Origin: Octopus vulgaris
Taxonomy: Eukaryota
Assembly (NCBI GenBank): GCA_951406725.2
Contig: OX597816.1
Coordinates: forward strand, 11,780,001-11,844,000
Direction: 5' to 3'
DNA length: 64,000 bases
In this document: positions 764 through 59,307 of the stretch, piece by piece
Numbering within the stretch: the stretch's first letter is position 1
Layout: each line of letters begins with the position of its first letter
Notes under the pieces: model-generated
What the model saw: the letters and a program-made list of their open reading frames with translations, nothing else
Told to the model about the DNA's origin: nothing
The model's database searches: none
Translations under genes and position numbers: made by a program

Positions 764-800
764 CTAAAATTTTCGTTGCGTCTTGCAACCTTTTCAATAG
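764..800 (-). ncRNA. Minimal hammerhead-like motif, U3-A8 core variant
   Basis: Minus strand: cta TTGAAAA g gttgc aagac gcaac GAAA AT T T tag. Stem II is 5 bp, stem III is palindromic AATT, stem I is only 3 bp. It lies in a repeat (625-800) also present at 58720-59310. Confidence 0.5.
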
Positions 801-1984
801 TTTTGACTCTGTCCGTTATTTACACTGCTATTTATTCTTTTATTTATTGATACTTCTCCTTCAAAACCTTTTTCATTTTTGTCATCGTCAACAGAATTAT
901 CCTTCTTAATTAAAAAAAAACAAAACACAACACCCTCCTTGTCAAACCCTGATCTTCTCTGAAAACAAAAATGCATATTACATTTGGCAAATAATATTTT
1001 TAATTTTCTAAATTATCTCACAGCATTTTGTTGGCTAAAATTATTAGCATTGATAAAAATGAACAGTTATTCTCCACACGATAACAAATTCCTATTGATT
1101 TCAATTAAATTTTTCTAACAACTAGATTAAAAGATTATATTTGATGCACTGCTGGTCTCTTTCAAAAACATAATTTTCAAAAGGAAAACACATAAATGAA
1201 AAACAAGCGAATAATAAGAAATAAATAAGCATAAAAAACACAAGAAAGATATAAAAGTACTGACACTTTTTCCTGTTTTTATGCAGTTTTTTTAATCATA
1301 TTTCTACTAGTTGAAATTTGAGAAATGATTGCGAAATAAATATTATGCAGCGATGTTCAGTGTATTAACTAAAGATTACCGTGAATCAAAAATTTACTTC
1401 GTTTTTGAATGGAGTGTAAAATGATGGAATTGGCAAATATCTCATGTAACCTTTGAAATCTCTGTAATCTGCTGCATTTGATCATAGTGATTATAATCCT
1501 CTGATGCGAAATTCCTGCACTAACTGAATGGTAGAATTGTGCATCAATGCCAAATTTATGTCAGTGTTTAGTGCACTGGCATTATTATGCAACTATTCTT
1601 TTTACTTGAAATTATTTCAGAATAATTTTGACTTTGCAATAAAAAAAAAACTGAATTGAAAGCAAATACATAAAAAGCTTAACTTGTGTCACACATCGTT
1701 TCGCACACTTTATGCCCGTATGTGTGTGCCTGTGGGCATGAGCTATATATATATATATATATATATATATATATATATATATATATATATATATAAAGAA
1801 AGAACATTAATACTTATGAGAGATATTAATGTTAGTAGCCGCAAGCTAAAACCATATAGGCAAAATCAGTAGATATATATTAAAAAAAATTATATATATA
1901 TATATAACAAGGGCTGGTGTCTTTTAAAAAAGTGCTCCTGTTATATATAATTCTTTTATATATATCTATTAATTTTGCCTATAT

Positions 1985-2130
1985 AGGCATAGGAGTGACT
2001 CTGTGGAAAGTAGCTTGCTTACCAACCACATGGTTCCAGGTTCAGTCCCACTGCGTGGTACCTTGGGCAAGTGTCTTCTACTATAGCCTTGGGCTGACCA
2101 AAGCTTTGTGAGTGGATTTGGTAGACAGAA
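1985..2130 (+). mobile_element. 5' part of CORE-type SINE (family C)
   Basis: Head ggcataggagtgactctgtgg...ggttcagtccca, then the CORE-like accttgggcaagtgtctt. Confidence 0.75.
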
Positions 2131-2222
2131 ATTTATTATTATTATTCAGGTCACTGGCTGGAATTGAACTCAGAATCTTGGGGTTAGTAGCCCTCGCTCT
2201 TAACCTCTACACTATATGGTCA
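2131..2222 (-). mobile_element. tRNA-like head of SINE family H followed by (AAT)n, tail missing
   Basis: Minus strand: tagtgtagaggttaagagcgagggctactaaccccaagattctgagttcaattccagccagtgacctgaataataat. Matches the heads at 52072, 54670 and 60000. Confidence 0.75.
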
Positions 2223-2499
2223 TGCTGTTGTTGTTGTCATTGCTGCTGCTATATGTATAATGAGGACACTGATTGAGTTCAGTAGTATATCGTTCTAGAG
2301 AATTCTCTTGGGAATTTTATGACTAGCTTCATCAATAAACATTTTGGACTTTTTTAAAAATATTTTTGTCCTTTGTTCTTGTTTTGAGAAGGAACCTAAC
2401 TTCAAGCAACTTTTTACAGATCAATTTTTAGACACTATTTTCTAAACCTGGCAAAGTATGTAAGGGGTGCAAATTTCGATTTTTATCCCCCTAAAACTT

Positions 2500-3388
2500 T
2501 TAATCAGTTAGGGATGCCAGTTAGCCTTTTACACCAATCAGGCTCATTCGTATTAGCCCAAGTTGCTGGATACTTTTTTGTTCCTTTAAGAATATTGTAG
2601 AACGGAAACTTTTCATTGACTGGAATTTCAATCCTAATCTCTCTTTTTACTTGTTTCAGTCATTTGATTGCAGCCATGCTGGAGCACCGCCTTTAATCGA
2701 GCAACTCGACCCCAGAACTTATTCTTTTGTAAGCCCAGTACTTATTCTATCAGTCTCTTTTTGCCGAACCACAAAGTAACGGGGACATAAACACACCAGC
2801 ATCGGTTGTCAAGCAATGCTAGGGGGACAAACACACTCACACAAACACACACACGCATATATATACACATATATACGACGGGCTTCTTTCAGTTTCCGTC
2901 TACCAAATCCACTCACAAAGTTTTGGTTGGCCCGAGGCTATAGTAGAAGACACCTGCCCAAGGTGCCAGGCAGTGGGACTGAACCCGGAACCATGTGGTT
3001 GGTAAACAAGCTACTTACCACACAGCCACTCCTGCGCCTATAGAAATTTTTTTTTTTATCTTTAAATTTTGAATTTGAATTACTTTTAATTTGTACGATT
3101 ATAGGTAACAACTCGGGCTGAAACTTCTGAGACTGAATCAGGCACATGAGAACAATGTCGAAAGAACATCTGCTATGAATGATATCTTTTGAAACAGAGC
3201 ACCTCTAAGACGGCCACCAGACACTGAACTGCAACCAGGCTCAATAAAAGGAGCCCGGGTTATTGGCTGCAATTACATAATTGAAGACAGTATTGGCACA
3301 AATTAAATCAGCTTGCAAATACACGTTCACTTTACTAAATTTATACTCGGTCTAAGCCTGAATAGCCTGAATGCCGGAGTCGCTACTG
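2500..3388 (-). mobile_element. Non-autonomous DNA element with hAT-like CAGT(A/G)GCG terminus, interrupted by a SINE
   Basis: 2500-2630 and 3060-3388 are the reverse complement of the uninterrupted copy at 40732-41185. Confidence 0.55.
2640..3041 (-). mobile_element. Full-length CORE-type SINE (family C)
   Basis: tRNA-like head, CORE-like motif, internal (TA/TG) microsatellite and tail ...gactgaaacaagtaaaaagag. Near-identical to 3827-4229. Confidence 0.85.
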
Positions 3389-3549
3389 ATATACGTATTT
3401 GTATGTCTTTGTGTGTTTCTTTGTGTTTGGTGACACATGTAACTAAGTAATGGCTCCAGTTCAATACTGCCTTTTTATATACCATTATCAAAGTAAGTGG
3501 TACGAGATTTTAGTTTAAGTAGTAAAGAATTTTCAAAGAAACGATCTAA

Positions 3550-3770
3550 CCCTTTAGTGTTCACATTATTCTGCCCAAATTAGTCCTTTTTTATCTGCAT
3601 TGTTTTGAACTAATCATGCTTTATCTTGTAACTATGAGAATTTGATGAGGTAGCTGTTAATTTTTAAAACGATATTGTAGGGTTGGTGTGAGAGACCAGA
3701 TCTGGCTAGTTTGACCATAAAACAGGCAGAATACTTTTGGCCGGATATGACGGGTTTAAATGCTAAAGGG
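3550..3770. mobile_element. piggyBac-type MITE
   Basis: Termini ccctttagtg / tgctaaaggg with degenerate TTAA flanks (ctaa, ctag). Confidence 0.5.
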
Positions 3771-57111: not shown

Positions 57112-57165
57112 AGCAAAAACTGTCCGATGAATGGCAACGGGAAACTCAGAGTAACAGGTTTTGTT
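57112..57165 (+). ncRNA. Type-I hammerhead-like motif
   Basis: agcaaaaactgt CCGATGA atggcaacgg GAAA ctc a gag T A acaggttttgtt. Long stem I and GUA site, weak stem II, U4 changed to C. Confidence 0.6.
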
Positions 57166-57653
57166 GAATTTTCTGCTGCTTTAAATAAAGTATATATATG
57201 TATATATATATATACATGCATATATGGGTAAAGGACATCAAAAACACACCTGAACAAAAAGAGAAACGAGACAGGCAATATAAAGAACATTCCCTTCATC
57301 AGTTGTCCCCTGTTTAATCTACTCCACATTTCAAAGGTAGGGACAAATATACATATGCATACACACACACACACACACACATACGCGCGCGCACGCACAC
57401 ACACACACACACATATGTATACATAGTCACTGTCTAGCAAAGTCATTCATAAGTCATTGCTCGACCTCAGCTATAGTTTCACACAGTGGGACTAACCTAC
57501 CAAAAACTACATGGTTTCAAAGGGAGATTCTTAACCACACACACACCCATACATATGACATTTTTCTAAAAACATTCACGGAACTAAATATTGATTATTT
57601 TCTTTCTGTGCTTTCTTAAGATTTGAAATATTTTTGACTATGATTAATAAATA

Positions 57654-58354
57654 CTAGCATTATGACCCGTCTTTGCCGGGTCATAGTTCTAGTGCATGTA
57701 TATATGTGTACATATTACATGTACATCTATATATATATATATACATATATATATATATATATATATATATATATATATATTTATATATATATATACATCT
57801 ACACATAAAATACAAAATACAAAGTTATATCTTGATATCGCTAGTGATAACAATACTGAAAATATATAACAGACTGGAATTGTAGGACTATTCCATTTCT
57901 GCACGCTAATTTTATTTTTAATATATTCCCATTCATGTGAAACCACTTATTCAAGTTCAACTCATTGATGCAATTTTATACCAATTGCTATTTTCACTTT
58001 TGTTATGTTACGATTATATTATACTTTAGTTTGATTTTAATTATTACTTGCTACATATAATTCAATTGTTATTATTATTATTTTTATTGTTAAAGTGAAA
58101 GTATCTGACATAAAATAGAGAAATGTTTTTGTTTCACTTTTAACACGTAATACTGAAATAGTGGAGAAGATATGATATTGCTATGGGCTCGCTCTAGGCA
58201 AGAAGTTGAACATTTGTTTTGCCCATGAAACTACATGGACCCTAAGTAAAGCATGTGTAAAATTTGAATGAAATTGGTTGCGTAGTTCTCAAGTTTTTGG
58301 GAAACACACAGACAGACAGACACACACAAATTCTCAGTTTTATATATATAGAGA
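57654..58354 (-). mobile_element. Non-autonomous Helitron
   Basis: Minus strand: A|TCtctatata...tatgacccggcaaagacgggtcata (hairpin) atgCTAG|T. Confidence 0.75.
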
Positions 58355-58784
58355 TTATATACATAATAATGAAATTTTTGTGATATCATACATAGGACAA
58401 ACATTACTTTTCTTGTTCGTTTAATTCAGTCTACTCATGAATACATACTTATTTATAATAAAATATTCATAATAATTTCTATACTTTCAGTTATTGAGAA
58501 TTCCTTTTAAAATAAAATATATTTTCGACTTCTTGGATTTTATATTTTCCTAATAAAATGAAAGTTGCTTATGAGACTTCAATGAATAAATTGAATATAA
58601 ATTCACTTTTCTTTCGTTTCTGCAAATAAATTACTTGAAAAATCGTCTTGATCTGGTGATAAAGTGTGACAGATGGAGTCTTCTTCACTGAAAGCTATAT
58701 AAATAATTTCCATTTTGGATTTGGTTTGCAAGATTCTTTATGTGAGTTCGTGTGTTGAAGCATATTCTGTTGTGTCTGAGGAGA

Positions 58785-59184
58785 TTGTGGAGGCGCAATT
58801 GCCCAGTGGTTAGGGCAGCGGACTCGCGGTCGGAGGATCGCGGTTTCGATTCCCAGACCGGGCGTTGTGTGTGTTTATTGAGCGAAAACACTTAAAGCTC
58901 CACGAGGCTCCGGCAGGGGGTGGGGGTGGCGACCCCTGTTGTACTCTTTCGCCTCAACTTTCTCTCACTCCACTCTTACTTCCTGTTTCTGTTGTACCTG
59001 TATTTCAAGGGGCCGGCCTTGTCACTCTCTGTGTCACGCTGAATATCCCCGAGAACTACATTACGGGTACATGTGTCTGTGGAGTGCTCAGCCACTTACA
59101 CGTTAATTTCACGAGCAGGCTGTTCCAATGATTCGGATCAACAGGAACCCTCATCGTCGTAACCGACGGATTGCTTCCATCCAT
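58785..59184 (+). mobile_element. SINE family T with 14-bp TSD, inserted into the U3-A8 hammerhead repeat
   Basis: tgtgtctgaggaga (58771) and tgtgtctggggaga (59185). The empty site is seen at about 675-690. Confidence 0.85.
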
Positions 59185-59270
59185 GTGTCTGGGGAGAGTC
59201 ATTCTCTTTTGGTGCCTTAGAATTTAACACACTCACTGGTAAAATTTCCACTTATTTCTGTTTTATTTTT

Positions 59271-59307
59271 CTAAAATTTTCGTTGCATCTTGCAAACTTT
59301 TCAATAG
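59271..59307 (-). ncRNA. Second copy of the U3-A8 hammerhead-like motif, in the loop of foldback 59185-59400
   Basis: Minus strand: cta TTGAAAA gtttgc aagat gcaac GAAA AT T T tag. Confidence 0.45.

Follow-up and report, generated by a model that had tools for sequence, protein, structure and literature searches.

A natural G3-C8 hammerhead family among motifs of probable Penelope-like origin in an Octopus vulgaris genomic window

A stretch of 64,000 nucleotides from Octopus vulgaris (GenBank assembly GCA_951406725.2, contig OX597816.1, positions 11,780,001 to 11,844,000; hereafter the window, in whose coordinates all positions are given) carries 13 hammerhead ribozyme motifs in about 10 insertions and 8 families, a density of about one motif per 5 kb. 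We propose that these motifs are minimal hammerheads of type I and very probably stem from several families of Penelope-like elements (PLEs) and their non-autonomous derivatives, where they lie in the 3′ terminal repeats (pLTRs), a source that the original prediction, made from the letters of this stretch, did not name. The motifs exceed what shuffled sequence yields, a PLE open reading frame (ORF) at 20298-22314 has one of them behind it, and several families show inverted partners and one-sided extensions. In addition, the motifs match the PLE consensus as described in the relevant sections of PMC4209133, including an extra base after position 9, a G10.1-C11.1 pair and a palindromic stem III. 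The window is 35.5% GC and contains many microsatellites and dispersed repeats.

Hammerhead folds lie far above chance with both descriptors that we used. The strict descriptor, which demands at least 3 bp in stems I and II and a palindromic or paired stem III while leaving positions 3 and 8 free, gave 10 matches in the window. Six have a Watson-Crick pair between positions 3 and 8, against a mean of 0.38 and a maximum of 2 in 60 local dinucleotide shuffles, and four lack it, against a mean of 0.93 and a maximum of 4. The second descriptor was designed with the motifs and the published PLE consensus already known, and it is therefore not blind; it gave 8 matches against a mean of 0.094 (maximum 2) in 500 shuffles, with none in the reversed window. 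Thus, the similar rate in shuffled sequence that the original prediction had named as fatal was not seen within the window. It had also warned that searches for a fixed CUGANGA core would overlook part of the repertoire; several families would indeed escape them, and Rfam overlooks the motifs too: no match reached gathering score in the window, and no hammerhead family appeared up to an E value of 10 in 52000-55000 or 19900-20200. Among the 150 of 322 Rfam E-value matches listed, we found microsatellite and hairpin noise. The strict-descriptor matches at 14015 (minus strand), 24103 and 31144 (both plus) lack a Watson-Crick 3-8 pair, fall inside the shuffle range and were set aside as noise, as were the extra matches of looser scans of the window and of related metagenome loci. 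No convincing motif turned up in three other inverted repeats or in five abundant repeat families represented by their majority sequences, and the family sequence patterns had no match in viral contigs, prokaryote genomes or metagenomes.

All 11 cores listed originally are present on the strands given, with the numbers marking motif ends rather than core positions. We name each motif by its position 3, in the numbering usual for minimal hammerheads: 797, 9927, 16125, 16369, 54522 and 59304 on the minus strand and 20017, 23196, 53034, 54801 and 57124 on the plus strand. Two decayed motifs had been overlooked, namely 9979 (plus), a G3-U8 twin of 9927, and 30071 (plus). The claim of at least 10 minimal hammerheads therefore holds as a count, but the strict descriptor is passed by only 6 of the 11 listed (797, 9927, 16369, 20017, 54801 and 59304), the rest being decayed; moreover, 16369 and 20017, with a stem III of 16 nt, are not minimal and are identical halves of one inverted insertion. 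The estimate of about 7 families was fair (8 if 30071 is counted). Of the motifs that fail, 53034 has stems I and II altered by substitutions, 54522 has its stem I displaced by an additional base, 16125 has C4 and opens stem I with a mismatch, 57124 has C4 and a stem II of only 2 bp, and 23196 forms four of six stem I pairs. In total, 7 of the 13 motifs have breaks, several of them transitions at CG dinucleotides. The core is complete in 9 of the 11 listed motifs, the two others being the C4 motifs. The extra base after position 9 and G10.1-C11.1 occur together at 797, 9927, 54522 and 54801; C11.1 is replaced by T at 53034 and 23196, while 16369 and 20017 have U-U at 10.1/11.1, as do related metagenome loci. 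Stem III is a perfect palindrome at 797, 9927, 9979, 23196, 30071, 53034, 54522, 54801 and 59304, and a near-perfect one at 16125, 16369, 20017 and 57124. The three types of 3-8 pair that had been announced all exist, although G3-C8 is confined to one family and U3-A8 to two. Their description as covariation does not stand, because the pair types were compared across unrelated families, which is not phylogenetic covariation; non-canonical families number only three.

One could suspect that the non-canonical motifs are chance look-alikes in palindromic DNA repeats such as miniature inverted-repeat transposable elements (MITEs). The window does contain long inverted repeats free of motifs (6742-6975, 11379-11643 and 23329-23608), and loose descriptors do produce spurious hits, as seen in the four matches without a 3-8 pair and in 13 viral matches to a loose G3-C8 pattern, none with stems, which we attribute to chance. 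We regard this explanation as highly improbable: matches of the second descriptor with G3-C8 or U3-A8 and a stem I of at least 3 bp arise at most 0.002 times per shuffle, the repeat arms are unequal and variably truncated, unlike MITE ends, and the sections of PMC4209133 on Schistosoma mansoni include UUGAAAA and UUGAUAA among its minimal hammerheads, UUGAAAA within a PLE. For 16125, 57124 and 30071, the look-alike reading stays open.

The layout of the insertions points to PLE machinery as their source. An inverted, 5′-truncated partner and a one-sided tail of 30-40 bp are given as PLE hallmarks in passages of PMC8557442 and PMC11167929. Such a partner is found in four of the eight families, with arms at 9802-9938 and 9968-10106, at 16308-17359 and 19034-20078 (97% identical), at 54427-54565 and 54758-54895, and at 59184-59311 and 59309-59410. 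The one-sided extension is backed by other copies in the G3-C8 family and in the U3-A8 family with an AAUU stem III; in the two other partner-bearing families it is suggested by single copies. No head-to-tail tandem array containing a hammerhead motif occurs in the window. Besides the three motif-free inverted repeats named above, a fourth lies at 50400-50886.

The ORF at 20298..22314 (plus strand) is Penelope-like, 5′-truncated and frameshifted, and comprises a reverse transcriptase (Pfam RVT_1), a C-x4-C-x2-C linker and, at the C-terminus, a GIY-YIG nuclease (Pfam GIY-YIG). It matches an Octopus vulgaris protein at 91% over 157 aa, its linker cysteines are conserved and, judged from this linker alone, it fits the Neptune/Nematis type; PLE protein relatives were absent from viral contigs. 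Motif 23196 (23190..23235, plus; UUGAUAA core with U3-A8, ACAUGU stem III, weak stem I) stands 882 nt past the ORF stop and about 60 nt ahead of a (TA)n run, and from this arrangement it is probably the 3′ hammerhead of the element. We compared it with 27 related metagenome loci, 20 of which matched near the C-terminus, 18 of these with at least 197 nt of 3′ flank. Thirteen of the 18 have, 71-201 nt past the match, a C3-G8 hammerhead whose stem III measures 6 nt and is palindromic in 12 cases; one other has a C3-A8 look-alike and four have no motif, while a U3-A8 or G3-C8 hammerhead follows the PLE match in none of the 18. The ACAUGU stem III of 23196 is the same as in one of these loci (L004). 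The U3-A8 core of 23196 could be characteristic of its family or the result of double decay, two complementary chance transitions being the less likely of the two. We rejected motif 20017 as a 5′ repeat of the adjacent ORF, as it closes an unrelated 1-kb inverted arm before (TA)n and is not the same as 23196. Behind the ORF, at 22480-22860, TGACGT and ATTGG motifs recur and a TATA-like sequence is present, possibly a terminal-repeat promoter; TGACGT motifs also precede the hammerhead in related loci L001, L003, L008 and L011. A further hammerhead-like motif (U3-G8, AUAU stem III) lies in locus L026 at 3341 (minus), on the strand opposite to the PLE match.

The G3-C8 core proved to be a trait of a family rather than an accident of one copy. 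Motif 9927 (9884..9934, minus) is a minimal type I hammerhead with the core GUGAACA, an extra G, a 5-bp stem II with G10.1-C11.1, an AAUAUU stem III, U17, a 7-bp stem I and a predicted cut after 9891; stems I and II form the minimum-energy fold of 9878-9940 (z -2.2). Its decayed inverted twin 9979 (9972..10022, plus; G3-U8) is 94% identical to it. Both belong to an inverted pair of a very high-copy repeat (9802..10150), with arms at 9802-9938 (minus) and 9968-10106 (plus); the plus arm extends at least 44 nt farther, on that side only, and family depth stays high to 10150. Contigs matching 9760-10150 at 80% likeness came from four runs with three organism labels (16,624, 7,521, 1,970 and 1,512 contigs). 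In run X1, the summed depth reaches 4.45 million at its maximum and about 50 in the flank and spacer, a rough ratio of about 9 x 10^4 that is not a copy number and is consistent with two copies in 64 kb. Position 9984, where the twin has T at position 8, reads C in 11,986 of 16,666 in X1, 4,946 of 6,680 in X10, 190 of 220 in X11 and 18.6 of 26.7 in X15, a run only guessed to be RNA, whose cover we do not take as evidence of expression. Among the 40 of 84 variant rows listed, none affects position 3 in the two copies or any core position of 9927, and the frequent ones lie in loop II (9909), change a stem I A-U to G-U with pairing kept (9888) or lie outside the motif. Several of the 15 of 162 joints listed connect the 5′ end of the motif (9935-9948) to truncated partner arms at points in 10030-10122, and loose ends at 9798 continue into (TA)n. 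The majority C at 9984, together with these joints and loose ends, shows that G3-C8 prevails in an abundant family whose insertions are PLE-like. Two further joints (9935 to 9889 and 9935 to 9892) fall within 2 nt of the predicted cut site of this family.

Whether the G3-C8 hammerhead works in its source element is a separate matter. The canonical families could be PLE hammerheads while G3-C8 was already dead in its source, carried as a passenger or kept for stems that serve as a protein-binding or folding signal, and we give this possibility real weight while holding it to fall short of an even chance. In the PLE hammerhead studied in PMC11167929, the engineered C3G/G8C double change restores cleavage just partly, and insertion in vitro still proceeds with dead mutants; in the window, the G3-C8 copies with a whole core derive from uncut RNA, and a single G3-C8 family offers no repeated origin by which selection could be demonstrated. 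On the other hand, reaching G3-C8 takes two complementary changes, 9927 retains all other core positions, G10.1-C11.1, the palindrome and a stem I of 7 bp, and the listed variants leave its core untouched. Passages of PMC3884650 report that G3-C8 is more active with G17 than with C17, and it is tempting to speculate that the U17 of the octopus family may avoid G3-C17 mispairing.

The second family with a swapped pair is the U3-A8 family with an AAUU stem III. Its first motif (797; 764..800, minus) has the core UUGAAAA, an extra G, a 5-bp stem II, U17 and a 3-bp stem I, and sits in a repeat copy at 621..804 (minus) that begins 7 nt before position 3 and is 88% identical to 59184-59311 and 94% to 58717-58784. 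The second (59304; 59271..59307, minus) has one substitution that weakens stem II. Its inverted partner (59309..59410, plus) lacks the last 45 nt of the family, with the end judged from the copies at 621-804 and 58717-58784. This partner starts about 4 nt or less from the predicted cut site, which we treat as a lead only because it is one case, with microhomology.

The ACGU family of canonical motifs appears to be the 3′ part of a longer unit. The complete copy (54427..54748, minus) consists of a tRNA-like head (about 54748-54670), an (AAT)n run (54668-54577) and a tail with motif 54522 (54481..54527, minus; C3-G8, one extra base ahead of stem I). An inverted 5′-truncated partner (54751..54895, plus; aligned arm 54758-54895) adjoins the 5′ end of the head and carries the intact motif 54801 (54796..54841, plus; C3-G8, extra A, 6-bp stem II, U17, 5-bp stem I). 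A second composite copy (59947..60081, minus) has the head, the (AAT)n run and 30 nt from the start of the tail before another repeat interrupts it, and a decayed C3-G8 minimal hammerhead of the family is found at 53029..53074 (motif 53034, plus). Heads followed by (AAT)n occur in four places (54427-54895, 59947-60081, 52073-52223 and 2133-2218), joined to the hammerhead tail in two; the four share 79% mean column identity, with conservation beginning at one point. They contain what we take to be A- and B-box-like sequences, and ARAGORN called no tRNA gene. The 3′ end of a tRNA-derived short interspersed element (SINE), shared with a long interspersed element (LINE) or poly(A), is not what this unit has; its 3′ part is the hammerhead tail with its PLE-type partner. 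We consider it likely that head and tail form one composite source element. That they are separate elements which met because both favour (AAT)n runs seems rather unlikely to us, even though other repeats follow two of the four heads (52073, 2218) and no head directly precedes one of the three tails with the (AAT)n junction (the tail at 52966). Against such chance meetings, the head-(AAT)n-tail junction is common to two copies, three tails have a common starting point behind (AAT)n, the inverted partner adjoins the 5′ end of the head rather than of the tail, and no run of four T occurs within the unit.

The remaining motifs are also C3-G8 or degenerate. Motif 16369 (16325..16375, minus; strict descriptor) is a type I hammerhead with C3-G8, A17, a 6-bp stem I, a 16-nt near-palindromic stem III and a U-U base of stem II that recurs in related loci L007 and L009; its inverted twin 20017 (20011..20061, plus) is identical. 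Two single-copy, degenerate hammerhead-like motifs with the core CCGAUGA (C4) fail both descriptors: 16125 (16078..16129, minus), with a 7-bp stem II, a near-palindromic stem III and a mismatched first pair of stem I, and 57124 (57115..57162, plus), with a 2-bp stem II, a ACUCAGAGU stem III, A17 and a bulged stem I. C4, A17 and a long near-palindromic stem III are common to these otherwise unrelated motifs. Finally, motif 30071 (30066..30102, plus) is decayed, with an ACGU stem III and a core one base out of register.

How could such copies have arisen? From the literature mechanism and the layout seen here, the reverse transcriptase and GIY-YIG nuclease of the element would copy RNA from near its 3′ end, so that most insertions would be short 5′-truncated pieces that retain the hammerhead, frequently with an inverted partner and a one-sided tail next to them. 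Two motifs, in tandem or on protein-bound source RNA, might associate by pairing of the palindromic stem III, perhaps with the protein of the element assisting, and cleave after position 17. Selection on source elements would have retained the 3-8 pair while tolerating C-G, U-A and G-C, and the dispersed copies would decay neutrally, most of them probably silent. The claim of selection for activity is thus applicable to the source elements only, on which selection probably acted, and does not extend to the copies in the window with their breaks; those that keep a whole core must derive from uncut RNA.

Several points weigh against a PLE origin with working hammerheads. Only one of the eight families (23196) sits behind a PLE ORF in the window, and there the motif lies at 882 nt, against 71-201 nt in its relatives, and has U3-A8 where all 13 of these have C3-G8. 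For the G3-C8, U3-A8/AAUU and ACGU families we found no autonomous parent, and 16125, 57124 and 30071 are single degenerate copies without a partner. The palindromes of 4-6 nt would give weak duplexes (-1.7 to +2.2 kcal/mol), and the in vitro work described in PMC11167929 finds cleavage unnecessary for insertion and no reads ending at the cut site.

The same evidence bears on whether the copies are a functional host repertoire that trims or destabilises octopus transcripts. Six intact-looking motifs in 64 kb and at least one family at very high copy number could suggest it. We nonetheless judge it very unlikely, given the breaks in 7 of 13 motifs, several at CG dinucleotides, and the single copies without a same-strand partner; opposite-strand twins cannot work as a dimer in one transcript, as they never put two ribozymes on it. 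The minimal motifs assayed in PMC4209133 show no cleavage as monomers and weak cleavage as dimers, and the PLE hammerhead of PMC11167929 needs the protein of the element to cleave, so the term ribozyme repertoire in the original prediction promised too much.

Other repeats lie among the motifs. A 390-bp tRNA-headed repeat is present at 40196-40551, 55593-55975 and 58786-59175, one copy splitting the 3′ part of a U3-A8 element. The 3′ end of a non-LTR (long terminal repeat) element with zf-RVT and a restriction-like nuclease motif, which we take to be R4/Dong-like, is found at 48360-49836 and 52221-52696, the second copy inside an (AAT)n run. A fragment at 15196-15528 (minus) matches Pfam DDE_Tnp_1_7 and is presumably a piggyBac-like transposase, and 65-bp tandem units occur within an abundant SINE-like family at 62724-63197 and 34407-34743.

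The role of hammerheads in PLEs is an open question, as their cleavage is weak and dispensable for insertion in vitro, and a natural G3-C8 family with tens of thousands of copies offers a direct test of it. If subfamilies retain the core and the swapped pair while their loops drift, cleavage matters to the element. Searches with a fixed CUGANGA core and Rfam models overlook such families, and counts made with them are therefore too low. Scaled up from this one window to a genome of 2.8 Gb, the density would give a few hundred thousand motifs. We could speculate, with more doubt than conviction, that octopus genomes hold on the order of 10^5 PLE-derived motifs, well above the numbers given for single genomes in PMC4209133, together with a catalytically active G3-C8 family of tens of thousands of copies whose U17 avoids G3-C17 and a polymerase III-transcribed, tRNA-headed SINE moved by PLE machinery rather than by a LINE; such a unit, if real, would add a class of partner for SINEs. 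Should all of it fail, the window would be an ordinary case, if a dense one, of a retroelement feature already known.

Much of what we describe has precedents, and the repertoire is not novel in the sense first claimed. The sections of Cervera and de la Peña (2014, PMC4209133) on PLE minimal type I hammerheads already contain massive abundance (about 2,000 motifs plus about 1,300 with U3-A8 in Schistosoma mansoni, 4,000 in coelacanth and 9,000 in Xenopus), the logic of dimers, numerous families in each genome, pairs on opposite strands, copies that mostly stand alone and a Saccoglossus motif with a long palindromic stem III and A17, besides the core, extra base, G10.1-C11.1, palindromic stem III and U3-A8 cores shared with the window. 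The difference lies in the density (about one per 5 kb against 2,000-9,000 per genome) and in the cores, as the Fig. S3 list of that paper, so far as seen, has no cephalopod, G3-C8 or C4 core. In the literature searched, we found no octopus hammerhead survey, nor such a density in a cephalopod, a high-copy family with a G3-C8 majority, or a tRNA-like head with a hammerhead tail and a PLE insertion signature. The passages of an O. vulgaris repeat paper (PMC13282606) that we covered mention neither hammerhead nor ribozyme, those of PMC10886601, PMC6155905 and PMC10085705 hold nothing on G3-C8 or composite-unit variants, and a giant squid study (PMC6962438) gives 235 Hammerhead_1 matches. A natural 3-8 swap to U3-A8, like that of the window, is described by Perreault et al. 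(2011, PMC3088659), which also mentions U4C in a viroid. In the literature passages covered, G3-C8 is met solely as a mutant made in the laboratory (Frangieh et al. 2024, PMC11167929), in contrast to its natural high-copy majority in the octopus family; likewise, a PLE-mobilised tRNA SINE was not met in the literature searched. Lünse et al. (2017), Arkhipova et al. (2017), Ohshima and Okada (1994) or the O. vulgaris repeat library may already contain the G3-C8 family or the composite unit.

Among mobile elements, the Neptune/Nematis PLEs as described in parts of Craig et al. (2021, PMC8557442) share with the window the reverse transcriptase, cysteine linker and GIY-YIG nuclease, a hammerhead near the 3′ end, the inverted 5′-truncated partner, the one-sided tail and the microsatellite flanks, with extensions of 44-70 nt here against 30-40 bp there. 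The Schistosoma Sm-alpha and Sj-alpha elements, in the passages of PMC6765202 on them, resemble the octopus composite unit in placing a type I hammerhead behind a polymerase III-type promoter. In Sm-alpha, however, the hammerhead is canonical and the element works from tandem copies, whereas in the octopus unit the motif is of the minimal PLE type and follows an internal (AAT)n; this unit is not tandem in the window and has a PLE-type inverted partner. Similarly, the non-LTR retrozymes, as portrayed in sections of PMC7229834 and bioRxiv 10.64898/2026.07.22.740005, are non-coding, hammerhead-bearing and thought to derive from PLE ends, but they are defined by tandem units each with a hammerhead, of which this window has none.

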